A stretch of DNA of 64,000 nt from Escherichia phage vB_Eco_F22: the sequence record OP870143.1. The stretch is one strand, 5' to 3'. The translations under genes were made by a program, and so were the position numbers. The stretch's first letter is position 1. Every line of letters starts with the position of its first letter. The notes beneath the pieces were generated by a model. The model did not search any database and was not told where the DNA came from. It worked only from the letters and a program-made list of their open reading frames with translations. Shown here piece by piece: positions 42,301 through 60,797 of this stretch.

Positions 42301-45300
42301 ACTTATCAAACTCAACCATCATATCAACAGCAGGTTTCAATTTGCCTTCCAGAGCTTTAGTCAACTCTTCAGACATAGCTTCACGGGACATTTTATGTAC
42401 CTTGATGCCTAATGCCTGAGCCAGTCCTAACTGGAAGTCAGAGAACGCTTGGCTATTTTCATTACTCAGGTCAATAGTAGAGAAGGTTGGCAGAATTGCT
42501 TCACGAACCAGCTTACTGGATTGTGGGTTGTTCTTACCAAGCATCTGCATACGACCTACTCGGGTCATGTTATAGCCATAGTGAATGGGGGTATCCAAAC
42601 CATTCTCTTGTTCTTTTAGATGATTAATTAAACCGAACAGAGAATCATATGCCATAGATACTGATAAGTTCTTACCTTCCAGTGATTTAGCATTATTTTT
42701 ATTCAGCAAATCAGGATTAAGAGTACCAGCACCCATTAGTTCCAGAATGCTGTCTCGACCCAATGCTTCATAGAAGTTAACCATCGGCATGTGTACACGG
42801 AACTCAGTAGCCTGTTCAGCTTTCAGTGCAGCTTTCTGTTCGGGGGTATTCTTAACAGCAGGATTACGTAACTGAGTTTGGGCCACGGAAGGAATGTCGT
42901 CACCAAAGTACATTTTCTCTTCCGGATTTACCAACACAGCTTCTTCAATTGCTGTAGGGAAATTATTAATAGGGTCTTTATCAGCCAACTTATTAATAGT
43001 GTACAGACCAATAGTCTTATTAGAGTCCGGGTCAATCTCAGACACATCCAGCATAGTCTCTGTAACTGCACCCATCTCAATGAGGGAAGACAGAATCTCT
43101 GTAGCCATTGCCACTGGAATGCCTTTTGTATAACCCAGTGGTGCATTAGGGTTACGATTCAAACCCCAATAAGATTCAATCTTCTGAGCCAGTGAGCTAG
43201 TAGCTTCGACCAGGGTCTGGGCATTCTCAAATTCAGCCAGAATACTTTCTGGTAACAAGGATGCTTCTACTCCAGTAATGGCAGCTACGTCTTTTATGTC
43301 TTTAATGGCAGCATTCTGTGCAGCAGTCAGTCGCCATTGCAGACCAGCAAGCACGGCAGTCTCTAACAACTGGTCATTGAACTTAAAGGTATCACCATCT
43401 TTTTCAACGATATTCAGCAGTTTGCCACCTACCCAACGGTTAGCTTCAGTACCTTCTGCAAAACGTTTACCAACGTTCTTATTAGCAAGGAACTTAGCCA
43501 GTCGTTCAGACAGAGTAGTCTTCAGTGTTTCCCCAAAGTCCATCAAATCTTGGTAACGTTCTAACACATCACCCGTGAGAGCGTTATTTTCTTTTTGAGT
43601 GAATGCTTCAAAGCGAGCAGCAGAAGACAGTGCTTGCTTAATATCAGCTAAAGGAGATTCAGAACCAATGGTACGGGACTTGGGTTCTTCTGGCAGGGTA
43701 AATGCTTTCAGGAACTGGTTCGGTGTCTTTTCATTGTTATAGACAGGGAACACTGTTTCCATCTCAGAAAGAGGTTTGCCACCTACTGTATAATCTGCTT
43801 TTAGCTGAGCCAGCGATACTTCATCTTTCTCCACGTTGTTAGTGTTACGGCCAGAGGTATCTACACCAACCAGAATCTGTGCATTATTGGCTTCAACGAA
43901 AGATTGAACAGTATTGAATTGTTCAGCGGTCAGCTTTTGATTATCAAACAGTTGTAGGGACACAAACGGTTGTTCACTGCCTTTATAGAAAGTAGAGCGA
44001 ATAGAACCAGTATCCAAAGACATATCACGATAGCCATCATGCCCAAATACGTCAGACAGGCTGATATGGTCGCCATTAGAACCAACCACAGTACCATCAG
44101 CAAACAACCACGGACTCTCTCTACGGTCACCACTCTTATTAAGAGTTTCCTGTGAAATGGTATTTTCTTTCACATAAGCATCTCTTTCAGATTCAGTAGG
44201 TTGCTCAATGGTATCCTCATTAGTGAGGGTAGCATCTACTGTTTCAGGCTTAGTAGTAGAAACTTCTTCTGTTTTTGGGCTAGTCTCCTTAGTAGGAGCA
44301 GTCTTATTTTCTACCACTGGTTTAGCTTTAGGCTGTACAGTAGTAGTGTCCTCTTGCACTGGTGCAGGAGTTTCATCAACCTGATTCACTGGTTCATTAG
44401 TCTGTTGAGACTGAGTGGCATCAAGACCACCTTGACGGAACTCTTTAACTACCTGGGCAGCAGGCTTGTTCAGACGTGAATCCAACGAGGTAACTTTCAC
44501 ATGAGAAACATTAAGCTCCGGGTAAGCCGTAGCAAGTGCATTAGCAATATCAGCTACGGTTTTGGCCTCCAGTCCTACTTGCTGTGCAAACTTAACAGAC
44601 TTGGTATCGTAAGGATTAACACCGAGGCCAGTACGACTACGTACCCATTCACGGGAAGGCGAGAGAGCCTGATAATGAACAGACTTATTCTTATCCGCAT
44701 TCCCCGAAATCAGATGCTCATTCAACGCTCCGACCTTATTCTGCATGTGCTGGGCGAACTTCATAAAGTCGCTCAGATAAGCGGAGGCCAAATCGAAGTT
44801 ACCAGAGTTATACGCAGAACGAATGCGTTTCGCATGTTGCAACGCAGAGTACTGTCCTTCATTAGAACGAGACTCGTCGGTTTTAATCTGTTTACTAACA
44901 ATGTCTTGAGGACGTAAGCCTAGTTCTTCTGCTTTAGCGTCGAACTCTCGTGCACCCTGTAACAAGGCAGCAGCAGATTGCAGGGCAGCACGTTGACGAT
45001 TCCCCAGTGTAATCTTACCTTCGCTTGCGTGCTTCAGAACCATGTTCACTGAATCTGCATCCAGTACTTCTGGAGATACATCAGCAGCCATAGCAATGTT
45101 GTTTGCTTGGGCTTGATTAGCTTCTTCAGTAGCTTTCAGCTTACCTGCTTCAGCCTGTTCCTGAATCATAGAATGGATGGCACGGAATGCACGAAGTACT
45201 TTAGGGGTATTCTGTACGTTAGCCATCAGACCAGAGAACTGGTCTACGATTGCAGCAGCAGGGGAACCCTGTTCCAGATTAGCCAGAGCACCCGGGTCAC

Positions 45301-47149
45301 GGTTAATGAAGCTATCCATGGACATGATGTTGTCATACATCTGGATTGCAGCTTCCATTTGAACGTTAGGGTCTTCGGCAGTATTAACCAGGTCAGCCAT
45401 CTTCTGAATAGCTTCTACACGGTTAGTGGAACCAGAAACAGCTTCACGGATTACTGGGTTAGCTTGTTCCAACTCTACCGGGTCGAACTTCATTGCCTGA
45501 GTTAAGTCAGCAGCATACTGGGTAGCAGCAGCTTTCTCTTCCGGAGAAATATCCATTGCATCTACTGCTTCCTGTACAGTTGCTTGTGCTTGTTCTGCCT
45601 GAGCAGCAGCTTCCTGTGCAGCAGCATTAACCGTAGCATCAGCTACAGGGGATGCTTGTTCATTACGCTTGGCAACTTCTTCACCACGTTGAACCAGAAT
45701 GTTAGTAAGAGGAGATGCAGCTTTTGCTAGTGTTTTACCAACCAGAGAAGCACCAGCCAGGGTAGTACGAAGAGTAGGGCCAGCAGCAGCACCGGCAGCT
45801 TTAACAGTTGCACCAGGGACTTGAGCAACTCCAGCACTACCGAAGCCATAAAGTGCACCAAGACCTGCTTGCTCACCAACCCCTTTGAGGGTGTCACGGG
45901 ATGCATCAACGTTTTCTTTGATTGCAGTATTCTGTGCGAACTGACCAAAGCCGGATTGAATACCTTCCTCTACAGTTTCACGCAGCATATTAGAACCAGC
46001 ACCTGCCAGTGAACCTACCTTAAGTGGGTTAAGTTCAAAGCGAGATACCAGTGGGCCGGTAGCAGCAGCAACTGGAGCAGTTAAGCCAGCAGCAATGATA
46101 CCTGTTTCAGATGCAGTCTGACGACGTGCTTCATCAGGAGATAAACCATCAGCAATATGCTGTTGGTAAACAGGAGACTTACTTGCCAGTTCTTGGTGGG
46201 ACATCTTCATGATTTCAGAAGCAGTCTGTTGGTATGCACCACCAGCTTCCATACCACCGATTGCAATAGCAGGTGCAGCAACACGACCAGCAGACAGTGC
46301 AACCTGTGCAGGACGTGAACCTAACCCAGCAGCTAAGGTAATACCCTTAACAGCTTTATCACCACCTACCATTACTTTACCGAGTGCAGATACACCACGA
46401 ATAAGTGGACCACCGGTAAAGAGGGAACCAACACCTTCACTCAGTCCGTCAGAGGCAGCCATACCATTATCAAGTGTATTAGCAACAGAATCGAAAGCAT
46501 CACGACCAATACGAGACAAGGAGGCAACCAAATCGTTCTCCCCATTTTTGATGTCTTGTTCATAAAGTTTCTGATTCTTTTGAGCAGAAATCTGGTTCTG
46601 ATTCTGAACAACCTTACGGGTAGCATTCAGTGCATCAGACTGTAGATTGTGTACGCCTTCATTCAACCAATCCATCCCGGAAGCAATGGTTGCCCCGGCA
46701 TTATCATTGACCAAACCTGTGCCAAGAGCAGCAATGCCCCCAAGGGTATTAGCAACACCAAGACCAACACCAGAAAGAGTATCGCCAAATGCTTCTGCGT
46801 TAGTACGTTGTTTAGATAAGTCCTGACGTACAACATCCGCAGCATTAGCTCGGCTATTAAGAATTTGTAGACCTTGCTCATTACCGTATTTATTAATGAT
46901 TTCTAATGGGGAGGCTTGAGTGAAATCTGCCTGAAGTGAACCTGGTTCGAATGCACCGATTCCAAGATTACCTACACGTCCGGTCTGGAGATTGTAAGCA
47001 TTCTCTGGGGTTAATTGGAAAGGGATTTGCCCTTGTGCAGCTTGCTTCTGAGAGGTTGCAGTAGAGACATCGACTCGCTTAGCATTAGTGATGCTGTCTG
47101 CGAAACCTGCCAGACGGTCAAATGTTGACATAGCATGTTTCCTGTTCAA
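36302..47149 (-). CDS. Giant virion RNA polymerase (N4 gp50-like vRNAP), 3615 aa
   Basis: Single uninterrupted 10.8-kb ORF; central T7-like palm motifs LYVEADGVTNGPINAM (A), KNPLTITIYGSGARG (B), KIFDGMNIG (C); first gene of the leftward block. Confidence 0.8.
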   Translation of the reverse strand: MNRKHAMSTFDRLAGFADSITNAKRVDVSTATSQKQAAQGQIPFQLTPENAYNLQTGRVGNLGIGAFEPGSLQADFTQASPLEIINKYGNEQGLQILNSRANAADVVRQDLSKQRTNAEAFGDTLSGVGLGVANTLGGIAALGTGLVNDNAGATIASGMDWLNEGVHNLQSDALNATRKVVQNQNQISAQKNQKLYEQDIKNGENDLVASLSRIGRDAFDSVANTLDNGMAASDGLSEGVGSLFTGGPLIRGVSALGKVMVGGDKAVKGITLAAGLGSRPAQVALSAGRVAAPAIAIGGMEAGGAYQQTASEIMKMSHQELASKSPVYQQHIADGLSPDEARRQTASETGIIAAGLTAPVAAATGPLVSRFELNPLKVGSLAGAGSNMLRETVEEGIQSGFGQFAQNTAIKENVDASRDTLKGVGEQAGLGALYGFGSAGVAQVPGATVKAAGAAAGPTLRTTLAGASLVGKTLAKAASPLTNILVQRGEEVAKRNEQASPVADATVNAAAQEAAAQAEQAQATVQEAVDAMDISPEEKAAATQYAADLTQAMKFDPVELEQANPVIREAVSGSTNRVEAIQKMADLVNTAEDPNVQMEAAIQMYDNIMSMDSFINRDPGALANLEQGSPAAAIVDQFSGLMANVQNTPKVLRAFRAIHSMIQEQAEAGKLKATEEANQAQANNIAMAADVSPEVLDADSVNMVLKHASEGKITLGNRQRAALQSAAALLQGAREFDAKAEELGLRPQDIVSKQIKTDESRSNEGQYSALQHAKRIRSAYNSGNFDLASAYLSDFMKFAQHMQNKVGALNEHLISGNADKNKSVHYQALSPSREWVRSRTGLGVNPYDTKSVKFAQQVGLEAKTVADIANALATAYPELNVSHVKVTSLDSRLNKPAAQVVKEFRQGGLDATQSQQTNEPVNQVDETPAPVQEDTTTVQPKAKPVVENKTAPTKETSPKTEEVSTTKPETVDATLTNEDTIEQPTESERDAYVKENTISQETLNKSGDRRESPWLFADGTVVGSNGDHISLSDVFGHDGYRDMSLDTGSIRSTFYKGSEQPFVSLQLFDNQKLTAEQFNTVQSFVEANNAQILVGVDTSGRNTNNVEKDEVSLAQLKADYTVGGKPLSEMETVFPVYNNEKTPNQFLKAFTLPEEPKSRTIGSESPLADIKQALSSAARFEAFTQKENNALTGDVLERYQDLMDFGETLKTTLSERLAKFLANKNVGKRFAEGTEANRWVGGKLLNIVEKDGDTFKFNDQLLETAVLAGLQWRLTAAQNAAIKDIKDVAAITGVEASLLPESILAEFENAQTLVEATSSLAQKIESYWGLNRNPNAPLGYTKGIPVAMATEILSSLIEMGAVTETMLDVSEIDPDSNKTIGLYTINKLADKDPINNFPTAIEEAVLVNPEEKMYFGDDIPSVAQTQLRNPAVKNTPEQKAALKAEQATEFRVHMPMVNFYEALGRDSILELMGAGTLNPDLLNKNNAKSLEGKNLSVSMAYDSLFGLINHLKEQENGLDTPIHYGYNMTRVGRMQMLGKNNPQSSKLVREAILPTFSTIDLSNENSQAFSDFQLGLAQALGIKVHKMSREAMSEELTKALEGKLKPAVDMMVEFDKSGHLPTDAVDILKTSLGDNKSFVALMALMEYARYLNSDNRANFNTPLYVEADGVTNGPINAMVLMTGGKFTPNWIKNTAKGGLFFGRAGKTMNEHCSIDDNVDLYEASTNSLQFYLNELRSAYRNNVPVMSQMDHLQKLMDLFIKDFNLNEDGTLDLKRGIAKNPLTITIYGSGARGIAGKMVSAITDAIYERLSDVLQARATDPSISPAMALFGKEAASEADAQAMLDTFLTSMEALTGKIPAKRKGKLFIKEVDGALTGELDPQEFTVSGDALKNLQENMLHFFVEPMRQSIRFTVGEGLMHSTENLQKATQIQSLVLQDMFQQAVQAKLAEKEKDPTWKKGDFLTQEELNEIQKSLSPLAPMIETGSQTFYIAGSENTDVANQVLATNLDDRMRVPMSIYAPSQAGVAGIPFMTIGTGDGMMMQTLSTMKGAPKNTLKIFDGMNIGINDITDASRKANEAVYTSWQGNPIKNVYDSFSKFMKNVDFNKLSDKTIDDIARSALDFEQLSHISRVEGDRQYKIDMIEKSGVNLIERNLRNIALGVDIRHKVMNQVQTTVDQMAAVGAPYVNNGKISLEGLTVDQQVAKLNELFDAELNKRRDAVRAAKAEPVKEVPAEETPVKEVPAMEQVGRVLKSGVRLLSNTAITKLAKEMSPEQQAVLKEVQKSLAAKDYKVVYGTPAQLDAYAIEKNITRPAPEDIEAAEAGNAYGWTNFDDKTIYLVTPSLETLVHELVHASTFESVLAHYEGTPNEAVQNIEDLMNQFRTLDVKDETPAVREAYADALNTINGHLSNGFIEPAMAKAAALNEYMAWGLTNRELISKQKKTTALKTMVQSVYEAIKRLVFGRKKAPANADDMFSGLLFNSSVVMRGQAPTAAVSKDTTLFHNKAYGDNTRLEELGQTFDKLITNYIGSEPVQQVIRKGKFSDAVVNATKVTRDVQAHGFTMNMQEQRLFTNIVAALATEAAISPAALSRAQEYYAHVTKNLTVEAFMADPDSTNPADRYYAQQKFDTIMGANNIEFDAQGRSSLLPTFVGLAMVSEEVRNVLANIPVMKADKKSGNTIDAMLTNIGTAAMSSLNARVAGDTKATNVQEGMDALAQTIMQTSLNAQSFYDSVATPSGNAIDRANQYLVDSIDALSTRALESAREVAANTKNPLVKGAAHAAQLVAAIATEKNGAIVAEGVMAAMNQGKVWQPFHDLVNDLTGRTKSNASVYDLIKAVRAQVQADRQQFREHLPTTIASKFSRKLTNDEWKAMHTGMGKTDLAVLRDTMSLAEIRDLLSDQKIVDREVNKLEADLQKQAGRNWPLISRKSKQLAQFMINGTVGNNLLRNATAISRMLGERQAARSTVDVAQLDKLITLYALEAMNKSDREMLSSLAQTEVDGMDFATSYLVGQRKDEMAKAKSDMRATLNQYKGHIPSETKQGVNLIVAEDSQFGDLIEKSYVRLGTYQGSSANRGPARSYYFAPVQAQAPFSQGILQNVRNTAGGVDIGTGFTMGSMVAGRITDKPSVDRITKALARGERGNEPLLPVYDDKGNVVAYEQSIDPNMLKHIEGENHLARAIGVWRGRQVEEAKAQRFNNMLIENLHSMYENDIKMSASNKSQYVNLLGSKLDPVTADALKLMNSETRQKAESLFGEGELWVRRDMLNDALGYRAASVGDAWSGNSRWSPETLDTFKKAMLGVFGNRAYKYTMGGENLVQNLVKEAKTLIVVKSVVVPAVNFLANLYQMVARGVPVKNIAKSIPQKTAEINQYLKSRLRQVDAEAELRAATNPNQIRKLKAEIQSITDSHKRMSIWPLLEAGEFSSIADAGIGRDDILITEGKLHEYMEKLADKLPKSVRTAGRYALITKDTALFQGIQKTVEYSDFIAKAIIYDELTQRKGKTREEALGRVTEEFVNYDRLPGRFRGYMESVGLMWFYNFKIRSAKVAVSMIRNNPVHAAMAMLAPTPTMFGNVGLPIQDNIFSIAAKGGLDYSWGFGQGLRAHNLNPWMNLVN

Positions 47150-47193
47150 ACTTATATCGTATATAGGTAACTTACTCTACAGTAAGCCAGTGT

Positions 47194-47216
47194 AAGAAAA
47201 AAGCCCCGTAGGGCTT
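47194..47216 (-). terminator. Intrinsic terminator between the upstream virion gene and vRNAP
   Basis: Hairpin AAGCCCC-GTA-GGGCTT; read on the minus strand it is followed by TTTTTTCTT. Confidence 0.55.
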
Positions 47217-47225
47217 TTATTAGTA

Positions 47226-49178
47226 TTACCGATTTTGTCTTGGTTGCATATACTCGGGCAGTCCTTGTGCCTGACGTAAGTATCGTGCAGCACGCTCTTC
47301 ATCTTCCTTGGCTCGTGCCCTGTCCACACTAGCCTGTGACTGGAAACCTCTTGGAGCCAGGTTAGCTGGGTCAGCTTGAACTTGTGCCTGTGCAGCTTGG
47401 AGCATTGCAGCAGCTTTAGTAACAGCTTCCTGTCTTGCAGGTAACAATGCAGTAAGACCTGTTTGTCCGGTGTTAATCTTATTCTGGGTATTTGCCAGTG
47501 CAGCTACAGCAGCATCATATGCAGTCTGTGCTGCCTGAATATTCTGCATAGCTTGAGCACGACCCAGGTTACGAACACTACCTTCCAGTGGCTCTCCCCG
47601 TTTCACACCCTCAATTAACTGTTCTACCTGACGGTCATTAAGACGCATACCATTACCGGCTTCATTGGTAATGAGTGGGTTAATTGCATCAATAGCACGG
47701 CTAATATAACCCTCTGGTACACCGGTCTGTGCACGTTGCATAACAGCAGCAGCCATAGCTGGTGACATATTCCCACGTTGAGAAATATCATTCAGTCGGT
47801 TCAGTACCCAGTTACGGTCAGCACCTTTAAAATCACCCTCCAACAGACGGTTAGCAATCTCACCTACTGGGGTATTATCAGTGACAGTACCGAGGAAGTC
47901 TGTATTAAGACTACCGGTGTTATCCTGCATAGAACGAGTACCAATCATACCGGTAGCCAGAGTAGATACTGCCTGATTACCAACCATAGCTAGTGGGTCA
48001 GCCCCCACTTCTGCTTGGGCAATAACAGGTTTAATCTGTTCCCAAGTCATATCCTTATAAGCACCCGGAGTAGAGTTAGGCAGAGCAGCCCAGGTATCTT
48101 TAAGGTTGCCATTCTTACGGGCCTCGAAGATAGCCTTACCAATCTTATCCTGGTTCTCAGGAGAAAGAGGCTGGCTTTGCCAATCTGAACCAAGAACTTT
48201 GGGAGCGAAGTCTTGCAGAGTAGCTTGGTTAATCTGGAATGCACCAACAGGTGAAGCACCCTGGTTCGTCTTCATACCTTCTTGATGCTTAACTACATCA
48301 CCAATACTCATTTGAGTAATAGGAGTAGAAGTACCAGCAAACTGGTAAGTAACATCATAAGGGGAACCCTGACGTGTACCAGCAGTACCCGGAGCAGATG
48401 CAGCACCCACACCATTACCGTATACACCCGGGTAAGCACTAGCCAGTAATCCCTGCAAACGTGCCTGTGCAACCGGGGACAGGTTCTTACTATATGCTTC
48501 TGCCAACAGACGGGCATCATTAGGGTTCTCAGCACCACGGGTAATCTGTGACATTACACCCATAGCAGCCTGACTATCAGCATCATTACGCTGAGCAACA
48601 CCTAAATCAAAACGATTCTGAGCTTGATTAATAGCCTGACCACCCTGACCTTGAAGACTACTCAGCATGTCCAATTGCTGGTTAGCAGGGAGTGCAGACA
48701 ATGCATCACGGGTCTGACTTAATGCAGCATTAATACGGTTCTGGTCACCGGACTGATAAGCCTCAGACAGTAAACGAATAGCAGGGGAAGCATTATCTAA
48801 TGCAGAGTTAGTATCCTGCAAACGTCCAAAGATATAAGCATTGTAGTCATTGGTTCCCTGCTGACCTTGTTGAGTCAGTAATGTACCTGCTCTCTCGTCC
48901 AGATTCTGGAGAGTACGCTGGTTTATCAGTGAAGGGTCAACCCCCTGAAACAATGCACCAGATGCTAAAGCATTACGGTACTCATTCGGGTCTTGATACT
49001 GCATAGCATTCATCATGACGGCATTGCCAGCCTCCTGCTTGGCAGCGTTCTGGAAATTACCCAGTGCATCACTTAAGCCGGAGGTGGCGTTACCAATCAT
49101 GTTGCCAAATGTGCGAATGCTGTCACCAACTCCAGAGAAGTTAGGTGCATCAACATTTCTCCACGTTATCTGAGCCAT
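47226..49178 (-). CDS. Virion-associated protein (650 aa)
   Basis: Large ORF directly upstream of vRNAP on the same strand. Confidence 0.5.
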   Translation of the reverse strand: MAQITWRNVDAPNFSGVGDSIRTFGNMIGNATSGLSDALGNFQNAAKQEAGNAVMMNAMQYQDPNEYRNALASGALFQGVDPSLINQRTLQNLDERAGTLLTQQGQQGTNDYNAYIFGRLQDTNSALDNASPAIRLLSEAYQSGDQNRINAALSQTRDALSALPANQQLDMLSSLQGQGGQAINQAQNRFDLGVAQRNDADSQAAMGVMSQITRGAENPNDARLLAEAYSKNLSPVAQARLQGLLASAYPGVYGNGVGAASAPGTAGTRQGSPYDVTYQFAGTSTPITQMSIGDVVKHQEGMKTNQGASPVGAFQINQATLQDFAPKVLGSDWQSQPLSPENQDKIGKAIFEARKNGNLKDTWAALPNSTPGAYKDMTWEQIKPVIAQAEVGADPLAMVGNQAVSTLATGMIGTRSMQDNTGSLNTDFLGTVTDNTPVGEIANRLLEGDFKGADRNWVLNRLNDISQRGNMSPAMAAAVMQRAQTGVPEGYISRAIDAINPLITNEAGNGMRLNDRQVEQLIEGVKRGEPLEGSVRNLGRAQAMQNIQAAQTAYDAAVAALANTQNKINTGQTGLTALLPARQEAVTKAAAMLQAAQAQVQADPANLAPRGFQSQASVDRARAKEDEERAARYLRQAQGLPEYMQPRQNR

Positions 49179-49190
49179 GATGGTTTCCTA

Positions 49191-49655
49191 TTAACGGGTT
49201 AGTTTATTAGCTGCAATGTAAGCATCAGCTGAAGACTGGTCACGGTTCTCTGCTGTAGCACGACTACGAGCACGGTCTTCCAGTGCAGTGTTATAAGACT
49301 TAATCTGGTTATTCAGGTTAGTGTTAGTAACACTCTTAGTAAAGTTCAACTGGTCTTTGGCTAACTTGTTAGCCTGGAAACCACTATAGATACCAGCTAA
49401 GGAACCAAGTGCACCAAGTCCTAGTTGGAAGGTGGGTACGTTCATACCCAACTGATTAGCTGAACCAGATAAGAAGGAGGTAGGGGAAGCCACTCCTGTA
49501 CCTGTATTCATACCAATAGCTGCACCCGGATTATAGTTCATAGCTGGAGTATTAAAGTTTTGATTGTTATTAGACATCCAAGACATAGCAGCTGGCTGTG
49601 GGGTTTGGTTGCCTGTTAAAAATGACAAATCCATGGGGATTCTCCTGTTAAACAA
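49191..49655 (-). CDS. Hypothetical virion protein (154 aa)
   Basis: ORF in the late structural block, 8-nt overlap with the upstream gene. Confidence 0.5.
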   Translation of the reverse strand: MFNRRIPMDLSFLTGNQTPQPAAMSWMSNNNQNFNTPAMNYNPGAAIGMNTGTGVASPTSFLSGSANQLGMNVPTFQLGLGALGSLAGIYSGFQANKLAKDQLNFTKSVTNTNLNNQIKSYNTALEDRARSRATAENRDQSSADAYIAANKLTR

Positions 49656-52290
49656 GGTCAGTATTAAGGGTCATATCAGAGTAGCTGCCAACCATGTTTA
49701 AAGACATGTCAGCTATATCCGAACCAGTCATAAGAGTACGTGAGAGGAAAGAATCCATCGACTCCATTGACACAAATTGCATAGGGTCAATTACACCCTG
49801 CCCAGCAGTACCAAACATTTCTTCATACTGCTTATTGATTGCCATCATATCAGTATTGTACTGCTGCATTAAATTCTCTGCTTTCTGAATAGTAGCAGCC
49901 GTGGATGCATTAATATACTGACTAATGCCGTTACCCACTGAACTGGTAAGTTGCATGATGTTCTGAGCATTCATCATTTCACTGGCTAAGGTAGATAAAG
50001 ATGTACCAGTAGACATAGCAGTACCAACGTTCATAGCTACCATTGAAGCAACAGCAGCAATGATAAAACCTAGCTTATCACCAAAGAGTGAAGTGGATAC
50101 TTTAGTGACAATAGATATCAGAATCATTGCAGCAATGGCGTTTGCTACAGCACCAACTATTACAGCAGCTAACCCAACAAAACCTAGCGATGCACCAACT
50201 GCACCATATGCCCCAAGAATACCAGCACCACCAGTACCCATAGTAAATACGGATACAACGACAGCAACCACAACAACCACAATCTTAAAGGCAGAGGTTT
50301 GATACCACTTCTGCTTAACCTTCTTGTATGAGTTCATCACTAAGTAGGAACAAGCAGTAGACAGTTGGGTACTACGAGTCAGTGACATTGAACGGTAGAT
50401 GTTAGTGTGTAGTGGAATAATGAATCCACTTTCCTCTGCATCACCCATTGCTTCGGCAACATCAATACTCACTGACTTATTTTTATATACTCTATTGTTG
50501 TGGTTTAGTCCCAGTACTCTAAGTTTACGGTAGGTGTCATTACCATCCTGCCAAAGCAATTCATACTCCTGCATAGAATAAAACGTAGGAGTAACTTCTA
50601 GTTTTTTGTTAGCACCAGTACGTATGTTCTTACGGGTAAGGGTTATATCCCCTGCATATCTGGCTCGAAGTTGCCCCTGCTTAGCACCAGCCCATGCTTT
50701 ACCAGAATGAGTAGTTTCAAACACATAGTTCCAACGGATGGTCATGTCATACTTATAATGCTTACTACTATGTACCCTAAACTCTCGCTTAGGTATGACA
50801 GGGTATTCTGGTAGTGGAGGAGGTGTTCCAACAATTTGACCTTCCTGTCTGTTCCACCATTCTACGTATGCATCGACTGCATCGTTTGCTGCCTGATAAC
50901 CTGCAATCACTGCTTCCAGTGTGGGGTAGGTTGGGTCAGGTGGGAATGCTTCAGTAGCCATCTGAAAGAAACGGTAGATGTATTCCTTAGCAGTATCTTC
51001 TGGAGTGTTAAGAGATACACCGAATGTGCCATAGATGTACTGGATATCACCTATGTCGTCATTCTTCTTAAGCTCAGTAACTACTTTATTAAGCTTACCA
51101 CCAGTAGCTTTATAGAGTGCCTTCTTACAGTGGGGGTAGATTGGGTCATTCTCTACCCATTGTTTATCATTCCTGATTGGAATGAATGGATAGAATCGGT
51201 TATCGGTAGCTTCCGTTTCAAACAGTGAATCGAGTGCAACGTTACCAGAGTTCTGCTTATAGATAAGCATCTTAGGAGTACCAACAGCAGTCATCTCAGT
51301 ATCAGTACGAGTAGTCTGGGATGAGTACTTACGAACCAGTGTCTCTGTGGTTGTGGTAATTGTATCTGTGCGAGTAACACCACCACCTAAATCAACTACA
51401 TTGGTAGTTACAGTAGTACTGGATTGAACCTCACCAAACTTTGTATGAGTCATTACCCTGTCAGATACAACTACAGTTACATCATCAGGCTTCTCAGTGA
51501 ACCCCCTACGGTAAACCTTAACGTAAGAGTTCCAGTTATCTACACTTGGTTCAGTAACAGTACTGTCTTCATCCGGTCTACCATCAGAGTAAACAGAATG
51601 GGTCTGTATAGTCTTAGTAAGATTGGTTGTATTAGCTGTAGTATCGCTTGAGATAGTGGTCCACAACAAAGTAGACGGTAAGTCATCTTCATCATCATAG
51701 ACAGTAGTCGGACCTACTACCGGTGGATTGATAATAGGGGACTTATAGAATGAGTAATCAGCATAGAGATACAAAGCACCTGGTTCAAAGTTAGTAGGTG
51801 TGAATGTAATGGTAGAACCTCCATCCAGGGAGGTCATAGTAATTTCATTGGTATCTTCATCAATGTCTATATCAAATCGTTCCATAATTCGACTTGGGGC
51901 ATTCTCATAAAGATACTGGTCACACCATTGCTCAAAGTCAGCAAAGCCAATCTCTGCTGCCTGAACATAGACAGATTCTCCGGCAGGTGGGGTAATTTGA
52001 CCCTCTATAACAGTAGGGTCAATCTTAGCCAGTACACCTAACGAAGAACCAGCCATACCAACTTCTGAATCATAGTGGTTCTTACTCCAGCTGGAGAACA
52101 GTCGCATACGAATACCCGGCCCATTCAGATAACTATCAGAGATAGTGTCTGCCATAGTGAATCCCGTATTGGAAACAATGTTACCAATGACTACAGTCTT
52201 CATATAGTTTGGACGTTTGTGTATATCCCCTGCCATGTTATAGACAGAGGATGCTACGTATACTTTGGTCTTCCCACTGAATAAGCCCAT
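49648..52290 (-). CDS. Large virion structural protein (880 aa) with extended Gly/Ala/Val-rich hydrophobic segment
   Basis: Long ORF; about 90-residue hydrophobic stretch starting VVVVAVVVSVFTMGTGGAGILGAYGAVGASLGFVGLAAVIVGAVANAIAAMILISIVT. Confidence 0.55.
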   Translation of the reverse strand: MGLFSGKTKVYVASSVYNMAGDIHKRPNYMKTVVIGNIVSNTGFTMADTISDSYLNGPGIRMRLFSSWSKNHYDSEVGMAGSSLGVLAKIDPTVIEGQITPPAGESVYVQAAEIGFADFEQWCDQYLYENAPSRIMERFDIDIDEDTNEITMTSLDGGSTITFTPTNFEPGALYLYADYSFYKSPIINPPVVGPTTVYDDEDDLPSTLLWTTISSDTTANTTNLTKTIQTHSVYSDGRPDEDSTVTEPSVDNWNSYVKVYRRGFTEKPDDVTVVVSDRVMTHTKFGEVQSSTTVTTNVVDLGGGVTRTDTITTTTETLVRKYSSQTTRTDTEMTAVGTPKMLIYKQNSGNVALDSLFETEATDNRFYPFIPIRNDKQWVENDPIYPHCKKALYKATGGKLNKVVTELKKNDDIGDIQYIYGTFGVSLNTPEDTAKEYIYRFFQMATEAFPPDPTYPTLEAVIAGYQAANDAVDAYVEWWNRQEGQIVGTPPPLPEYPVIPKREFRVHSSKHYKYDMTIRWNYVFETTHSGKAWAGAKQGQLRARYAGDITLTRKNIRTGANKKLEVTPTFYSMQEYELLWQDGNDTYRKLRVLGLNHNNRVYKNKSVSIDVAEAMGDAEESGFIIPLHTNIYRSMSLTRSTQLSTACSYLVMNSYKKVKQKWYQTSAFKIVVVVVAVVVSVFTMGTGGAGILGAYGAVGASLGFVGLAAVIVGAVANAIAAMILISIVTKVSTSLFGDKLGFIIAAVASMVAMNVGTAMSTGTSLSTLASEMMNAQNIMQLTSSVGNGISQYINASTAATIQKAENLMQQYNTDMMAINKQYEEMFGTAGQGVIDPMQFVSMESMDSFLSRTLMTGSDIADMSLNMVGSYSDMTLNTDLV

Positions 52291-52291
52291 A

Positions 52292-53134
52292 TTAGTTCAG
52301 CCCGTTGTTAGACTTCAGCTTGGTCAGAATGGTATCAATACTTGCGTTAGTGAAACCATTAGGTGGGTTCAAGCCTTCATCAATAGTCTTCTGTGTAATC
52401 CATGCATCAGTAAACAGCTTAGATGCTTTAACTTCTGCATCACGTTGGTAAGAAGTAATTTGCTGAGAGTACAACTCTTTCTGCTTACCTACAGAACCAG
52501 TAACAGTAGCTCCATCACTTCGGGTATCTAGCGTCTGTGCACGTTGTGCTTCGGTCTGCTCAGTAATCAGCTTAAGCTGTTGAGGTAACATCTGGTCAGC
52601 ATTAAATAATGCAGCACAGTATGTTTCAGACTCAGTAGCAATCTTCAGTTTAGTAAGAGCATACTCACTCTTAGCAGACAGTGCCTGAATCTTAGCCAGT
52701 ACATACTGAGCTTTAGAAGTTGCCAGTTGAACGCGTGCAGTAACTGCCTGAATCTGTGCCATAGCAGCAGCCCAGTATGCTTGGTCACGACCAAGTAAAA
52801 ACTGAACAGCATTACTCATGCACGATTCCATCATAGCAATGTATGCTTTGGTGTATTCACCACCAGTAATACGATTAGCTTTAAACTCAGCTTTAAGGTG
52901 ATTGTGTGCAGATTCCATTAATGCATCAAACGTACCACTACCACCTACTTCACGGGTAGTAAGTGATTCATTTGTTACTTTAGTAATAGCATCAAAGATT
53001 GGGGAATTATCACCACCAGGGATATCCCATTCAGGACCAGACATATCAATGTCAGGGAGGGTAAAGTCATCACCCTTAGTTAACTCTTCTAGGAGTCGGT
53101 TAGCTTCTACCTCAGCAGAACAAGACATAATCAT
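52292..53134 (-). CDS. Structural protein (280 aa)
   Basis: ORF in the late block. Confidence 0.5.
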
Positions 53135-53204
53135 TCCTCTTGGTTCAAAAAGAAACGGCCCACGGAGTTACCCCAGTGAGCCGTGTTGAACTGTAGCTTA
53201 TACG

Positions 53205-53846
53205 TTAATCGTTCAGGCTACCAGCAGCAATCTGTGCTTGAGCCAGTTGAGCCAATTCTGCTTCAGTCAGCGGAGGCAATACTTCAATGGAGAACTCACG
53301 TGCTTCTGTTGCACGGATATCCGGTAAGCCATTCTTACCTTTGCGAGTCGTAATGTTGATGAACTTACGCTCTTTAAGGAACTCATAAATACAGTACGGA
53401 ATATGATAACCATTGTCGGTGACTTCACCGAATGGAACAAACTTACGTACAGTACCCATATATTCGTTAGCTACGGTGATAATCTCACCCGGCAGGTCTT
53501 TCTTCTTAGGATCAAGGTTCTGGATACGTACACGAATCAGTCGAGTCTGTTCTGCACGAATCTTCTGACCCAGAGTCATTTTCTTAACACCTGCTTCTTG
53601 TTTTTCACCCAAAGGATTAACAGCAGTTTCTTTTACTTCTGGTTCATCTTTTGCTTGTGCAGCTTCAATCTTCTCACGGAGTTTCTCAACGGAGATGTTG
53701 TTAGAGAACTTAATATTCATCAATGTTGCACGTTGCTTAAGAACTTCAAGTTCGCTAGGCATTGCAATATCGTTAACGGTATCTTCGTTGCCCTGTACGT
53801 CCAGTTCTACGTCAGTGGTCGGTTTATCGTTAATGCTCATGTTCAT
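53205..53846 (-). CDS. Hypothetical structural protein (213 aa)
   Basis: ORF downstream of the capsid gene. Confidence 0.5.
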   Translation of the reverse strand: MNMSINDKPTTDVELDVQGNEDTVNDIAMPSELEVLKQRATLMNIKFSNNISVEKLREKIEAAQAKDEPEVKETAVNPLGEKQEAGVKKMTLGQKIRAEQTRLIRVRIQNLDPKKKDLPGEIITVANEYMGTVRKFVPFGEVTDNGYHIPYCIYEFLKERKFINITTRKGKNGLPDIRATEAREFSIEVLPPLTEAELAQLAQAQIAAGSLND

Positions 53847-53882
53847 ATTTCCTGTGGTTCAACTAGTTTTATTAAGAGGGGG

Positions 53883-53906
53883 ACTTATGTCCCCCTTGTT
53901 TTATTT
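53883..53906. terminator. Strong hairpin downstream of the major capsid gene (orientation ambiguous)
   Basis: Hairpin AGAGGGGGAC-TTAT-GTCCCCCT; T-run is stronger on the + strand reading than on the - strand. Confidence 0.35.
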
Positions 53907-53913
53907 AGGACTA

Positions 53914-55116
53914 TTACAGAGGAGCAACAGTCTTAATCAGAGCCAGACGTTCTGGACGTTTAACCAGGATACCGTAGTACCACTTGATGGAACTGAAGCC
54001 AGTCTCACCATACGGATCATTACGGTCAGCAGTTTCTCGACCAGGCATCTTAGTCATGATGGAGAACTTAACAGACTTACCATCAGTCTGGAAGCCAATG
54101 GTAGAGAAGGAGTCATCACCAACTACCAGCATCGGGAATACGTCGTAGTGTTCTTGACCACTAACCATAGAAGAACGATAACCTGGGTTAGTAGTAACCT
54201 GAGCACCAGCACCTGCCCAATGCAGCATTTCTGGAACCTGGATAATACGGAACTTGTCGATACAACCAATCTCACCATTCATCAGAGTACCAGCATCAGC
54301 ATAGTGCTGAACCTCGATGAATGCTTTGTTACCGAACAGGTCTTTCATCGCTTTCAGTTCTGGAACCAGTTCAGAACCAACGTACATTACACGAGTACCA
54401 CCAAGTACTTTGGTATCAGTAAGTTTAGAACCAGTGATGATAGTAGTCTGGGTCGGAGTACGGTTCTCAGTAAGAATCTGGTCAAGACGCATCAGGTTCT
54501 TATAAGAAACTACAGACGGGGTAGAACCTTCACCGGTGATGGTAGCATCGGAGGTAGCAGCACCTGCATACAGTACAGTACCAGCAGCAGCCAGCAGGTC
54601 TTTCTGGAGAACAGCTTCAGTCAACTGTACAGCACCGTTCATCAGTTCACGGGACAGGTGCTCTTTCAGTTGGTCGTCAGAATCAAAGTCCAGAGACTCT
54701 TGAGTAAATTCGTAGAAGAAACCGAACTTATGAATGGAACCTTCACGAGACAGACGGGTAAAGCCTACACGGTTAACACGACCACCATTCTCTGTCAGCA
54801 GAGGCAGTTTAGAAGTGATGTTACCAACGTCTCGGGAAGAACCATACAGGTTACCATTAACGATGGTAGCACCCTTAGCATCAATACCCTGGTCGTTGAT
54901 GTTCTTATCATCAAGCAGTGGGACGTACTCATACACCTTAACAGTCTTACCATAGTTCTTCGGCATGTTAATGGTGTTAGCCAGTGGCATGAAATACTGG
55001 TCTTTACGGGACTGAATAATAGCTTTCTTCAGCCAGTAATAGGTATTCATCTGGTCGGAACCAGCACCATCAATGCTAGATTTCTGGCCGTCAATTGGGG
55101 CGTTATAGTTTAACAT
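53914..55116 (-). CDS. Major capsid protein candidate (N4 gp56-like, 400 aa)
   Basis: Size and position (portal - small protein - scaffold-like - this gene) match N4-like capsid modules; strong hairpin directly downstream. Confidence 0.55.
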
Positions 55117-55132
55117 ATCATCTTATTCCTGT

Positions 55133-56353
55133 TTAAAGACTACCCGGTACTGGGAGTTTAGCGAAATCTTCATCACTCATAGCGAGTGGGTTTACAATAG
55201 GTGTTGCTTTACGTGTAGCAGCCCGACTAAGGGAAGCTGCTTTAGCTTGCTCACTGTTAGCCAGAGTCTGCTTAGGTTGTGCTACACGCACTACCGGCTG
55301 AACTACTGGTTTAACTGCTTGTACCGGTTCTGGCTTAGCCACTCGGTTAAATGCCCCTTGTTGTGCAAGGAGGTTACCGACGTGGTTATAAGCCTGAATG
55401 AACGGAGTACCTACCGGAATCTGGCCTAACATCTGAAGACGGTTCACTTCGTTTGCAATGGTGTCATAAATACCATTCTCACGTTGTTCGTGAATAGTCT
55501 GGAGTAGGCCACGATTCTGGTAAAGAGCATCTTTACTGGCAGCATCCCATGTCGAGCCGATAACACCTAATGTAGCTTGTCCTTCTTGAGTAGACTTTAA
55601 GTCGTCAATTTCGGTTGCAAAATCTGCTTCGGTGTCGGTAACACGGTGATTGCCACCCTGGTAGTTAATTTCCTCATCTGGGTTAAAGTCCAGAGGATCT
55701 GTACCAGAGTCTTTGAGCAACTTCTTAATGGCTTCAGGATTCTTTTTATCCAGGTCAATCAGGAAGGAAAGTTTGTCCTCATCCATTAAACCGTTGTTCT
55801 GTAACATCAGCATTACCTTACGGTAAGGCTTTAGTTCTTGCATCTTACGAGTATAGTTAGCACCCATCTGCATCAGGCTAATGGCCTCCTCCGGTGAACG
55901 GGGAGTAATCACTTTGCCGTTAGCTTTAAAAGGAGCCATCAACTTTTCGTAACTTTCCTTATAGTTGAAGTCAGCAGGCAGACCTTCAGACTGTTTGCCT
56001 TCTTCTTCCTGTTCCTGGCCTGGTTCAGTAGTAGAAGGTTCAGCTTTAGTAATCGGCTCGCCGTTACTATCAACTTCTGTGTCAACAACTTTATCATCAA
56101 CTTTATCAGAAGTTAAAGGATTTGCTGAATCTTCTTCATCTGGTTCGGCTTCGGGGGAGGTTTCTTCGGTTGGTAGGTCTTCAACAGCAGGGGTGTCAAC
56201 TTCTTCATCAGGAGTCTGTACGCCGTTGGTTTCTGGGTTGTTCTGAGTGGAAGTATCTTCCTCAGCGATAATTGCTGGGGCTTCCATATTCAGAATCTCA
56301 TCATCCGACATTGCGAGAATGTCGGAAGCTGTGGTTGCAGCTTCCGTAGTCAT
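55133..56353 (-). CDS. Acidic protein between portal and capsid genes, scaffolding-protein candidate (406 aa)
   Basis: Highly acidic N-terminal region; syntenic position between portal and capsid. Confidence 0.4.
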   Translation of the reverse strand: MTTEAATTASDILAMSDDEILNMEAPAIIAEEDTSTQNNPETNGVQTPDEEVDTPAVEDLPTEETSPEAEPDEEDSANPLTSDKVDDKVVDTEVDSNGEPITKAEPSTTEPGQEQEEEGKQSEGLPADFNYKESYEKLMAPFKANGKVITPRSPEEAISLMQMGANYTRKMQELKPYRKVMLMLQNNGLMDEDKLSFLIDLDKKNPEAIKKLLKDSGTDPLDFNPDEEINYQGGNHRVTDTEADFATEIDDLKSTQEGQATLGVIGSTWDAASKDALYQNRGLLQTIHEQRENGIYDTIANEVNRLQMLGQIPVGTPFIQAYNHVGNLLAQQGAFNRVAKPEPVQAVKPVVQPVVRVAQPKQTLANSEQAKAASLSRAATRKATPIVNPLAMSDEDFAKLPVPGSL

Positions 56354-56372
56354 AGGAAATATCTCCGGTTAA

Positions 56373-56717
56373 TTATTCGTCTTCAGGTTCAGCACGAACT
56401 GCGTCGAGTTCTTCTTCTACCTGTAGAATAACGTCAGCTTCGTTTTCACCCATGCGAATAGCGAGGTCGAGCCAACGACGTAAGTGACCAGCAGCTTGAG
56501 CCATGTTCAATGCATCTGCACGGTTATTTGCTTCAAGCAGTGGGTCACCAGACTCTTGCACGTAACGTGCACAATCTTCCGTACAGAACTGGCGAAGAAT
56601 TACTTTACGGAACAGTGGATTCTCCAGAAGTTTACGTACATCTTCTGCATGTGCAACTGCACCTTTAGCAGCTTCCAGTCGATGTTCCAGTCCAGCGATT
56701 GTTGATTCTTTACTCAT
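56373..56717 (-). CDS. Hypothetical protein (114 aa)
   Basis: ORF between portal and scaffold-like gene. Confidence 0.45.
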   Translation of the reverse strand: MSKESTIAGLEHRLEAAKGAVAHAEDVRKLLENPLFRKVILRQFCTEDCARYVQESGDPLLEANNRADALNMAQAAGHLRRWLDLAIRMGENEADVILQVEEELDAVRAEPEDE

Positions 56718-56730
56718 GTGAAGGTCTGCC

Positions 56731-59001
56731 TTACAGGTTCATGCCAAGAGCCGATGCTGGGTCTTGGCTAGGGTCATAGTATTGGGAACTAAGTGAATAA
56801 GCCGGGTCTTGTTGAGCAGCTAAATCACGTTCTGGTATAGAGTTCCCGTCAGTCAAAGTATTATATCCAACAGCAGCAGATATGTTGGGGGTAGTTTCCC
56901 CTTCTTTAATAGGTGTTGTCAATGCCTTAGTTATCTGAAGGTTCTGGTTTCCTTGGGATTGTGCTTTTTGTTTTTCCATATCACGAGCATGTTTAGTACC
57001 AGATTCCTGTTCCAGATAATCCAGGTCTTTAAGGTCACCAGCAGAAGCAGCCTCTTTAGCCTTAGCCATATTGAGTGCAATCTTACTTTGTAACTCTTCA
57101 TTCTCAAGCTGTGCTTTCTGAATTGCCAATTGCTTAAGCTGTTCTTCCATAGGGTCTGGTTGTGGTTGCCAGGTACGTAACTCATGGGCCAGGTCAGGCA
57201 TACGTTTAAGTTCTGCAATCTTAGCTACAAGAGATAATGTAATAGTCTGGTCAACCGTATTACCCAATGTTTGAACCATGAAGCTCAAGTCCTGAGATTT
57301 CTGGTTATCAATTTCAGCAGTGTTAATATCAACCTCAATGTCGAAGTTACCTTTAAGGTCTTCACGGTTAATCTCTACATACTGCTCGTTAGTAATACGT
57401 ACGACTTCTTTCTCAGATAAGAACACAGCATTCATTGCACAAATCTTAGTACCAATGTCTGCCATACCTTTAGCCAATCGACGAAGGATTGCCATCTCAC
57501 GTTTGGATGCTGCATCAAGTGCACCACGAATACCGGCAGCCACATCTCCATAAGCTGAACCAGTTACACCACCAGAGAATGCTTTGACCCCAGTTAATGC
57601 TTCTGCTTCCTGGTTTTGCATCTGAGTCATTACTATTGCTGACTGAGGTAACTCAGGGAACTTATGTTCCATAATGGCCTGACTAGGATTACCTTGCATT
57701 GGGTTATATTCATAGTCTTGTCCATCGTCATATCGACGTCGGTTTAGTGTATCCAGCATCCCTTTAGGATAACCACGTTGACCATTTGCACTTCGACCTA
57801 ACAGGTCAATCATCCCACGCATAGTTGCACCAAGAATTGCTTGGTTATCTCCTAACAGTTCAGCATCAGCTTCACCGAATAGCTCTCGTTTACGTGGCAT
57901 GTAAGGAACAACTACCAAAGGTAACTTACCATCCGGGAAAGGGTTCTTCTCCATACGAATAAGAGTAGAGCCAATCCAGGTAGCAACAATTGGTTCCAGA
58001 GAACCATCATCATTGATGTCGTAAAATCCCCAGTACTCATAAGCAACGACTTTCTTACGTAGTGCATCCTTAAACTGGAAGTCGCTTGGAGTTTTACTCT
58101 CATGGTCTGGATCAGTCATAGGACTGGAGCTTTCCCAATCAATCTTATCTAAATTGTGGTAACGATCTTTGTTCTTCATGAGGTCTGCTTTACATGTCTC
58201 AAACGAGATAACTGCATACAGAGCCTTATCCAAATCACCATTACAACTAGGGTCAATAACTACGTTATTAGGGTTAAGCATTTCAACGGTGGGTCTGTTA
58301 ACCAGTGCCTTCTCTACTTCTACTTCAGTAACCCCAGTCTGGATTGCATAGGTAGCTTCCCCAGTTTCATTGAAGTAGTTAACAGCTTCTTTAATATCTT
58401 CAGGCATTGTTTCATCGTACTCACGAGGATTCTCTGCCTGAAGCTGTAAAGCCTGTTGAAGAACATCTGCCTGTTCCTGGTTCTCAATTGGATACAACTG
58501 AAATACTGGAGTTTCAGTTTTAATCTTAACAGTCTTACGTTCCCAACCAATACGAGCAATACCAGTACCGTCATCTACGACACTGTGTACGTAATCATCT
58601 ATCAGTTTCACTTTATTAAGCTGGGTACGGAATTGGTAGTTAAGAACTAATTCATTCTGACGTGCAGCTAATTCATCTTCAAAAGTAACCGGAGTTACTT
58701 TAAAGAGTTTATTAGATGAGAGGAATGGTTCAGACAATGGAGCATATCGCCACTCTGCCTGACGGCGAACCAGTCTAGGCTGGACTTGCGAACGTCCCTT
58801 AACCTTTGGGGGTTTAGCCTTACCCTTGACTTCCATCAGGTCATTCCACTCACGAATCTGTGCCATAATCGCATCGTGAGCAGGTTTAGCTGATTCCAAA
58901 TCACCCTTCAGCAATTGGATACTTGGTTCCTTCTTCCAGTCCGTTATCTTCTCTGATTGAGCCGGGTCTGGTAAAGGCTTAAAAGTGTCTTGGTGTTCCA
59001 T
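56731..59001 (-). CDS. Portal protein candidate (N4 gp59-like, 756 aa)
   Basis: Size and synteny upstream of the capsid assembly genes. Confidence 0.55.
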
Positions 59002-59009
59002 AGTTATTC

Positions 59010-59531
59010 CTATTCAAAAAGTTTACGGTCAGCCTGAATTTGTTTACCCAACTCAATTAGTTGGTTGTCACGGAGTCTAACAGTTGCCCGGAGTTCTTCA
59101 ACCAAACGTCTGCCTTCTTCAAGACTGTTGTCGAGTCTGGCTGCATGGCTTGCAAGACTTCTGCACTCAAGGGTTCCGGCTTCGGCTTGACGTTTATATA
59201 CCGATGCTCGTCTTTCAGACTGTTGCATCCGGCTGTCGTAATCACTGCTAACGCGAGCAAGCTCGCTTGCGTAATTACTCTCAGCCGTCTGCAACCGGGA
59301 AGTGAGTAACCCGACTTCATAACTATGGTTTCTTTGGAGAGCATTGTATTTGTCCTGTAGTTTTTGTATTGCCTTCAGGTCTTCAACCTTTTGGACATCC
59401 CACTTCTTTTGAACAGTAGACTGCCCATTGGAATTGCCCCAAAAGTAAATGGTGGCCCCGAGGACCACCACCAGAAGATAAGGCCAACCTTTAGAGATTA
59501 GCATCTTCATTACATGCCTCCAGTGGTACAT
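59010..59531 (-). CDS. Rz-like inner-membrane spanin (i-spanin)
   Basis: N-terminal transmembrane helix [16 protein letters not shown] followed by coiled-coil-like periplasmic domain; contains embedded lipoprotein ORF. Confidence 0.55.
59057..59320 (-). CDS. Rz1-like outer-membrane lipoprotein spanin (o-spanin), embedded in the Rz gene in another frame
   Basis: Lipobox-like [12 protein letters not shown] with Cys, Pro-rich KPKPEP segment; fully inside the Rz ORF; start codon uncertain (track ORF 59057..59344). Confidence 0.5.
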   Translation of the reverse strand: MKSGYSLPGCRRLRVITQASLLALAVITTAGCNSLKDEHRYINVKPKPEPLSAEVLQAMQPDSTTVLKKADVWLKNSGQLLDSVTTN

Positions 59532-60126
59532 TACCGATTCGGTTAGCTACCCAACCATACGTAAAGTCTGGCATGTTCAATGAGGTGTAGTGGTTCAGTT
59601 GTTTAGCATCAAGCAACTTAATCATTACCTTACATGCTGCAACTTTGCCTCGTTTTTTCTGTAATACTTTATATGCATTAACAGTACCTGCACCGACTTT
59701 ACCATCAACTTGTATTTTAGGGTAGTCTTTGCCATCACGGGACATTTCATTAAGAGATTGCTGCAACCATTTAGCTGGTCTGGTTACACCAGTGTTAACA
59801 CCAGCATCAACCAGTTTGTGTGTTACAGCAGGAGATATATCAGCGAAAGCTACGAAGTTAGGCTTGAGTACGTAGTCATCAATGTATATCTCAGCAGCCA
59901 TCTCTTTCGATAAACCCTTCATGGAACCATTCCAACCATACTCAGTAGCCAGAACTTCTTTATGAGACTTAGCTACCGATTGGGTAATACCATGATTAGT
60001 TTCCCCACCTGGGTCACGAGGATTGTTTACGTACCCTCCTTCCATATAGAACACTGCCCCCAGAATAGCAGCGACAACTCCTCCCACTGCACCACCTTTT
60101 GCAGCAAGTTTTTGTTTAGCTTTCAT
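59491..60126 (-). CDS. Endolysin, GH108-type N-acetylmuramidase with N-terminal signal-anchor (SAR-like) segment
   Basis: YMEGGYVNNPRDPGGETNHGIT matches the GH108 N-terminal signature; Gly/Ala-rich hydrophobic stretch GGAVGGVVAAILGAVF. Confidence 0.65.
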   Translation of the reverse strand: MKAKQKLAAKGGAVGGVVAAILGAVFYMEGGYVNNPRDPGGETNHGITQSVAKSHKEVLATEYGWNGSMKGLSKEMAAEIYIDDYVLKPNFVAFADISPAVTHKLVDAGVNTGVTRPAKWLQQSLNEMSRDGKDYPKIQVDGKVGAGTVNAYKVLQKKRGKVAACKVMIKLLDAKQLNHYTSLNMPDFTYGWVANRIGNVPLEACNEDANL

Positions 60127-60788: not shown

Positions 60789-60797
60789 TTGTTTTAT

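Follow-up and report, generated by a model that had tools for sequence, protein, structure and literature searches.

The 64,000-nucleotide stretch of DNA from Escherichia phage vB_Eco_F22 analysed here (sequence record OP870143.1; hereafter the window) contains, at 49648..52290 on the minus strand, a gene that can with high confidence be identified as that for the tail plug of an N4-like coliphage of the G7C/Bp4 type (Gamaleyavirus). Its product is an orthologue of N4 gp53, in which residues 670-716, together with residues 29-56, would form a cork in the mouth of the tail tube. An original prediction for this locus had seen in it a virion protein with a long hydrophobic segment, comparable to phage ejection or pore-forming proteins, and had proposed that it helps to move the giant virion RNA polymerase (vRNAP) across the envelope. 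The orthology, synteny, predicted fold and segment conservation presented below come from our analysis, and the position of the plug, its copy number and the knot that seals the tube are drawn from the papers on phages N4 and DEV; from these together we infer the same arrangement in vB_Eco_F22, as well as the triggering of its plug. Publications of 2026 had already described the family, where it sits in the virion and what the first half of the segment does.

The gene is a single open reading frame (ORF) of 880 codons, with the ATG at 52290 and a TAA stop at 49650-49648; these are exactly the bounds given in the original prediction, to which the strand can now be added. The hydrophobic stretch spans residues 667-760 (DNA 50011..50292); of its 94 residues, 13 are Gly, 18 Ala and 19 Val, so that these three amino acids make up 53% of it, as against 23% of the whole protein, and only four of its residues are charged. 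All 19-residue windows from 662 to 760 have a Kyte-Doolittle average of at least 1.6. Within the stretch lies a 60-residue run devoid of D, E, K and R (residues 670-729), a length that was matched in only 4 of 20,000 shuffles of the protein. The unusually long Gly/Ala/Val-rich segment of about 90 residues that had been claimed is thus real; its placement in the C-terminal third is right in that it lies near the C-terminus, and is more exactly the last quarter (76-86% of the protein length).

To identify the protein, we ran phmmer against all PDB chains. The best match by far was chain FA of 9YFT, 'Gp53' (885 aa; E=0, 1060 bits), which aligns over residues 1-883 with residues 1-879 of the window protein and establishes homology over the full length. 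The second was chain M of 9ZE4, an 'N4 gp53-like protein' of 740 aa (E=1.2e-15), whose score comes mostly from residues 601-866, and the matches in this search were limited to gp53 and gp74. The family that unites N4 gp53 and DEV gp74, PHROG 2220, scores 1105 bits over residues 1-879 and carries the PHROG label 'unknown function'; no Pfam family was recovered for the window protein at E<=0.01, nor at E<=10. As in the other members of this family, the gene follows that of the gp54 tail tube and precedes the gp52-gp51-vRNAP cassette, and the predicted core fold is common to the solved plug structures. The elements of the knot (29-56 and 670-716) are also present: they align without gaps, carry the same numbers as in N4 and are conserved family-wide.

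In the published work, N4 gp53 was modelled as the tail plug in cryo-electron microscopy (cryo-EM) density and was detected by liquid chromatography-mass spectrometry (LC-MS) (Bellis et al., Nat Commun 2026, PMC13434306). Six short helices from residues 29-56 and 670-716 of the protein make up a 'hydrophobic knot' by which the base of the tube is corked, and its core contacts D9-D10 of one subunit of the gp65 sheath, giving a 12:6:1 'tail-gating complex' (PMC13434306). The plug is present in a single copy, and is retained on emptied particles; the authors propose that it is displaced sideways and is able to re-cork the tube (PMC13434306). Their model ends at residue 724, the remainder being 'lost in the tail lumen', where a poorly resolved double ring possibly represents the C-terminus of gp53 and/or gp52 (PMC13434306). 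Likewise, DEV gp74 is a plug, held by the gp56-gp55-gp54 receptor-binding fibre (mBio 2026, PMC12892993).

The numbering of the window protein is identical to that of N4 gp53 over residues 1-145 and from about 486 to 716 in the phmmer alignment. The two N4 knot elements correspond in it to YMKTVVIGNIVSNTGFTMADTISDSYLN (residues 29-56) and IVVVVVAVVVSVFTMGTGGAGILGAYGAVGASLGFVGLAAVIVGAVA (residues 670-716), the latter uncharged and 70% Gly/Ala/Val. By combining this alignment with an AlphaFold2 (AF2) model, we could divide the gene as follows, all parts being on the minus strand:

49648..52290, minus strand: predicted tail plug gene of the N4 gp53 type, complete (880 aa plus stop), from phmmer against PDB, PHROG 2220 and 96.8% identity to the protein of Escherichia phage KKP 3715

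52123..52206, minus strand: N-terminal part of the 'hydrophobic knot', residues 29-56, from the alignment to N4 gp53, with AF2 helices at 29-40 and 46-55

51271..51678, minus strand: beta-feather protrusion of four long antiparallel strands, residues ~205-340, an optional insert, from AF2

50143..50283, minus strand: predicted cork of the tail tube, residues 670-716, first half of the segment, from homology to the N4 knot

50011..50142, minus strand: second half of the segment, residues 717-760, almost wholly unresolved in N4, from the column profile, with AF2 helices at a predicted local distance difference test (pLDDT) of 35-50

49651..50010, minus strand: polar, predicted-helical C-terminal tail, residues 761-880, from the alignment and AF2 secondary structure

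The strands of the beta-feather are predicted at residues 211-234, 241-266, 272-300 and 306-334 with a pLDDT of about 85-92. The first half of the segment is explained by the solved structure of the orthologue, since residues 670-716 correspond to the knot residues of N4. Residues 717-760 and 761-880 are resolved in no structure; the former contain the invariant N717 and an LFG(D/E)K motif, after which comes G737xxxG741xxx(G/A)745xxxS749, and the latter are presumed to lie in the tail lumen.

Conservation was assessed in 67 homologues with less than 50% identity and in a second, 64-sequence alignment spanning 29-93% identity. Across the 67 homologues, residues 667-729 have a mean hydropathy of 1.81, with 1.4% charged residues and 1% gaps, and their column conservation of 0.58 compares with 0.36-0.48 typical of the protein; the first 60 residues of the protein rank with its best-conserved parts (0.63). 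The original prediction had named conservation in relatives as a point on which it could fall, and the hydrophobic segment is in fact kept at 87-99 residues throughout the 64-sequence alignment. G703 and N717 are invariant, and conservation is 90% or more at G690, G693, G699, G706, A709, G713, A718, G737 and G741, as it is in the KWYQ motif ahead of the segment and at E843, F848, R851 and G856 of the C-terminal motif, which may be called invariant. The regular recurrence of conserved Gly and Ala at a spacing of 3-4 residues fits tight packing of short helices. The beta-feather, by comparison, is missing in five members of about 740 aa, in which only 7-9 residues align there. An apparent loss of the segment in distant Klebsiella and Vibrio phages, suggested by tblastn alignments ending at residue 669, was rejected: direct translation of the homologues from a Klebsiella Pylasvirus and from a Vibrio phage reveals the MGLFS start, the KLKWYQ..FK motif and a long hydrophobic stretch, and we attribute the stop at 669 to the low-complexity filter of BLAST. 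When residues 601-880 were searched with phmmer against 1.84 billion cluster representatives, 1,557 proteins were found at E<=0.001, 549 of them at E<=1e-30, and in nearly all of the 150 matches listed of the 1,557 this module stands at the C-terminal end.

That the product is a virion protein, as originally supposed, agrees with the cryo-EM and LC-MS data on N4 gp53 (PMC13434306), with the detection of the LIT1 homologue, gp74, by virion mass spectrometry (MS) (PMC3715699), and with the virion MS of the G7C-like phage Moo19, in which gp70, of 96 kDa, is 'similar to N4 gp53' (PMC11654681). The same data contradict a non-virion integral inner-membrane protein acting late in infection, e.g., in lysis or exclusion; the evidence for such a protein consists of the hydropathy profile and labels such as 'membrane protein', the gene is located among those for the tail and ejection proteins, and we regard this possibility as extremely remote. 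The comparison with ejection and pore-forming proteins was not upheld either: no similarity is detectable, Pfam being empty at E<=10 and BLASTP of the plug protein against the gp51, gp52 and vRNAP of the window giving nothing better than E=0.38.

GenBank already holds proteins 95-97% identical to the plug protein, and nearly all database records label its homologues 'hypothetical', 'membrane protein', 'baseplate wedge' or 'SseC-like'. Other annotators have given Klebsiella phage KpCHEMY26 gp65 and the BFVD entry A0A8S5LB32 labels such as 'SseC and TMD domains' and 'Secretion system effector C-like'. We rejected an SseC-like translocon or alpha-helical pore former, as the Pfam search at E<=10 was empty for the window protein, for an N4-type sequence and for KpCHEMY26 gp65 alike. 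An aerolysin or ETX-MTX2 beta-pore-forming toxin, considered for the beta-feather, was also discarded, the structural similarity not being borne out by an independent method. The window protein can now be annotated as tail plug.

By analogy with N4 and DEV, the protein may be envisaged to work as follows. [quoted passage not shown] Residues 670-716 and 29-56 would come together as a compact helical bundle, its short helices packed through Gly/Ala, that is pushed into the mouth of the tube as a cork, thereby retaining the DNA, the gp52 and gp51 ejection proteins and the vRNAP inside, and residues 717-760 with the polar C-terminal 120 residues would extend up the tail lumen. On binding of the receptor, the plug would be displaced, letting out the ejection proteins, vRNAP and DNA. 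The plug would accordingly be a gate on vRNAP release, the channel role belonging to the homologues of gp51 and gp52, for both of which bilayer channel activity has been demonstrated (PMC13434306). The abstract of that paper assigns gp51 to a complex in the outer membrane and gp52 to a periplasmic tunnel, whereas its discussion and Fig. 8 legend reverse the two, and we rely on neither version. Of the proposed movement of the polymerase across the envelope, what stands is that the protein would govern the release of vRNAP; it would do so as a gate and not as a carrier, and the half of the segment seen in N4 is a cork and not a membrane pore.

Several observations weigh against this identification of the protein as a corking plug. 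Its role is transferred from DEV and from N4, with about 54% identity to an N4-type sequence; AF2 models residues 684-800 without confidence and does not reproduce the knot; and in the map of Moo19 the density at the tip of the tube is weak and uninterpretable (PMC11654681). Further, there is no gp65-sized ORF in the window (which ends at 64000) or, in KKP 3715, between the terminase and portal genes, nor does the virion MS listing of Moo19 contain a sheath (PMC11654681). As neither such an ORF nor the sheath was found, the partner that anchors and triggers the plug, and with it the trigger itself, probably differs from that of N4.

The idea closest to that of the original prediction is that the plug additionally serves as a membrane pilot or anchor. 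This is compatible with plugging: upon release, the lumenal hydrophobic part (at least 717-760, perhaps with the unfolded knot) would enter the outer membrane of the host and anchor the tail tip or seed the gp52/gp51 channel. Hessa-type insertion energies are negative for residues 670-686 and 707-725 and marginal for 740-758, the first of these helices is preceded by a basic flank (KKVKQKWYQ), and the plug is the sole strongly hydrophobic product of the gp50-gp54 cluster. Stripes of small residues, G699-G703-G706-A709-G713-N717 and G737-G741-(G/A)745-S749, are conserved, and glycine-zipper patterns of this kind are common in membrane helices; however, tight packing of helices in the knot would account for the Gly/Ala pattern equally well. 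Because the C-terminal ~160 residues are located at the exit, within the lumen, they would emerge ahead of any other polypeptide, and independent annotators have labelled homologues 'TMhelix containing' or '2 TMDs'. Against this, plug density is seen on N4 particles emptied of DNA, for which re-corking was proposed (PMC13434306), a single copy per virion cannot on its own make a channel of ~35 Å, and channel activity has been demonstrated for gp51/gp52 and not for gp53. On balance, we consider a pilot or anchor unlikely. An explicit form of it, in which residues 717-760 and the invariant C-terminal motif emerge first, insert in the outer membrane as a single-copy pilot, anchor the tail tip and nucleate the gp52/gp51 channel, and in which a partner other than gp65 acts as the trigger in G7C-like phages, is to our minds similarly doubtful; if it were true, the plug would be both the gate and the first membrane-penetrating element.

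A second alternative is a role in assembly, whereby the lumenal C-terminus would act as the core or initiator on which the 12 copies of gp54 polymerise, in loose analogy to a tape measure or tail-tip initiator, with plugging as a consequence. The ATG of the plug gene lies 1 nt past the stop codon of the tail-tube gene with no obvious ribosome-binding site there, which suggests coupled translation; the very tight length range of the segment, the invariant E843/F848/R851/G856 motif and the location of the C-terminus inside the tube would also suit such a function. Nonetheless, experimental support for it is absent from the literature examined, and one copy facing a 12-mer offers no obvious templating geometry. 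Moreover, DEV lacking gp56, the fibre that stabilises the plug, still yields particles, which then leak DNA (PMC12892993), pointing to sealing rather than to tube assembly. We therefore hold an assembly role to be quite improbable, and retain the tail plug as the interpretation of the gene.

The closest genomes are those of the G7C/Bp4-like coliphages of the genus Gamaleyavirus (Schitoviridae). With KKP 3715, a member of this genus, the plug protein shares the identity given above, and the DNA is ~95% identical across 44208..60796 of the window. On the minus strand the order of genes is portal, a 406-aa ORF, major capsid protein, a 213-aa ORF, tail tube, plug, gp52, gp51 and vRNAP, and each identified neighbour has an N4 counterpart as its PDB or PHROGs match. 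The original prediction had placed the plug gene next to that for vRNAP; the two do belong to one cluster, with the gp52 and gp51 homologues intervening:

56731..59001, minus strand: portal

53914..55116, minus strand: major capsid protein

52292..53134, minus strand: tail tube, N4 gp54 homologue (PDB 9D80_C 'Tail protein', E=1.5e-150; 9LC0/9YF4/9YFT 'Gp54', E=3.4e-124)

49191..49634, minus strand: ejection protein, N4 gp52 homologue, 147 aa from the ATG at 49634 (PDB 9YF4_OA '16.5 kDa protein', E=8e-44; 8VXQ 'N4 gp52-like protein')

47226..49178, minus strand: ejection protein, N4 gp51 homologue, 650 aa (PDB 11MN_A '66 kDa protein', E=2.5e-130, residues 1-357; PHROG 6126, virion structural protein)

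36302..47149, minus strand: giant vRNAP, N4 gp50 homologue, 3615-aa ORF (95-98% identity to the KKP 3715 vRNAP outside one insertion)

The junction between the plug and gp52 genes measures 13 nt. In the gp52 homologue, the ATG at 49634 has AGGAG upstream and aligns with residue 1 of N4 gp52, and the TTG start given by the ORF finder at 49655 is probably wrong. Amino acids 3-89 of this protein form an uncharged run of 87 residues in which N, Q, G, S, T and M are abundant, and it is only moderately hydrophobic, with a 19-residue hydropathy maximum of 1.08. The vRNAP ORF is likewise listed from a TTG; because its alignment to KKP 3715 opens at residue 7 (MSTFDR; window 47131..47149), the true start is probably the ATG at 47131. 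Relative to KKP 3715, the vRNAP (3615 vs 3450 aa) has an in-frame insertion of ~141 aa at residues ~984-1124 (window ~43778..44200, minus strand). An intein was rejected as its source since intein termini are absent, and by its sequence the insertion resembles a small additional domain within a linker of the N-terminal region.

Upstream, the 406-aa ORF between capsid and portal (55133..56353, minus strand) occupies the position of N4 gp57 and matches PHROG 2120, labelled 'tail length tape measure protein'; this label is probably wrong, as such a function is unlikely for a podophage gene in the capsid-portal position. A 751-aa tailspike is encoded at 60798..63053 on the minus strand; its resemblance to known spikes is confined to the N-terminal ~155 residues, which match G7C gp63.1 (4QNL), the tailspikes (TSPs) of CBA120 and the Pfam family Tail_spike_N. 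As the DNA identity to KKP 3715 stops at 60796, the receptor-binding part of this tailspike appears to have been swapped. The adjacent 285-aa ORF (63099..63956, minus strand), for which no match was found among PDB structures, could be part of a tail module substituting for N4 gp64/gp65. The window further contains a single tRNA-Ile gene at 34462..34537 on the plus strand, with the unusual anticodon AAT, which is annotated in KKP 3715 too.

The partner that anchors and frees the plug in the apparently sheath-less G7C-like phages bears on how receptor binding by tailspikes is coupled to ejection of the giant polymerase.

Among known systems, the plug protein most resembles N4 gp53 (PDB 9YFT), with which it shares its full length (880 vs 885 aa), position in the gene order, MGLFS start, beta-feather and a hydrophobic segment identically numbered up to 716, although only about half of the residues are identical. 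The N4 plug is held by D9-D10 of the gp65 sheath, whereas the G7C-like lineage, to judge from the window and the KKP 3715 region, has no gp65-sized gene and carries gp63.1-type tailspikes. DEV gp74 (PDB 9ZE4 chain M), from a Pseudomonas phage, is shorter at 740 aa, lacks the beta-feather, has 12-14% identity over the structural alignment, and has its lateral anchor in the receptor-binding fibre gp56-gp55-gp54, whose receptor is LptD (PMC12892993). The plug protein is outside the ejection-protein families, SseC-like translocators and aerolysin-type toxins. The ejection proteins that make up the DNA ejectosome (N4 gp51/gp52 and T7 gp14-gp16) are encoded in the same kind of cluster, are partly stored in the tail lumen and act in the same ejection sequence; yet they are multi-copy, are expelled and form channels in bilayers, whereas gp53 is single-copy, stays on emptied N4 particles and has no sequence similarity to them. 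In P22 and Sf6, the tail needle (gp26 in P22; cited in PMC11445570) is the podophage plug: it seals the tail channel once the DNA is packaged, and ejection requires that it depart or shift. The task of one assembly closing the channel is the same, but the needle is a trimeric coiled coil with no hydrophobic segment and no homology to the gp53 type, which is a monomer with a 12:1 mismatch to the tube. In the siphophage T5, the tape measure pb2 has a hydrophobic C-terminal part in the tail lumen behind a closed tip, and is multi-copy, spans the tail and is expelled; no homology to it was detected, and it offers a possible model for the role of residues 717-880 of the plug.

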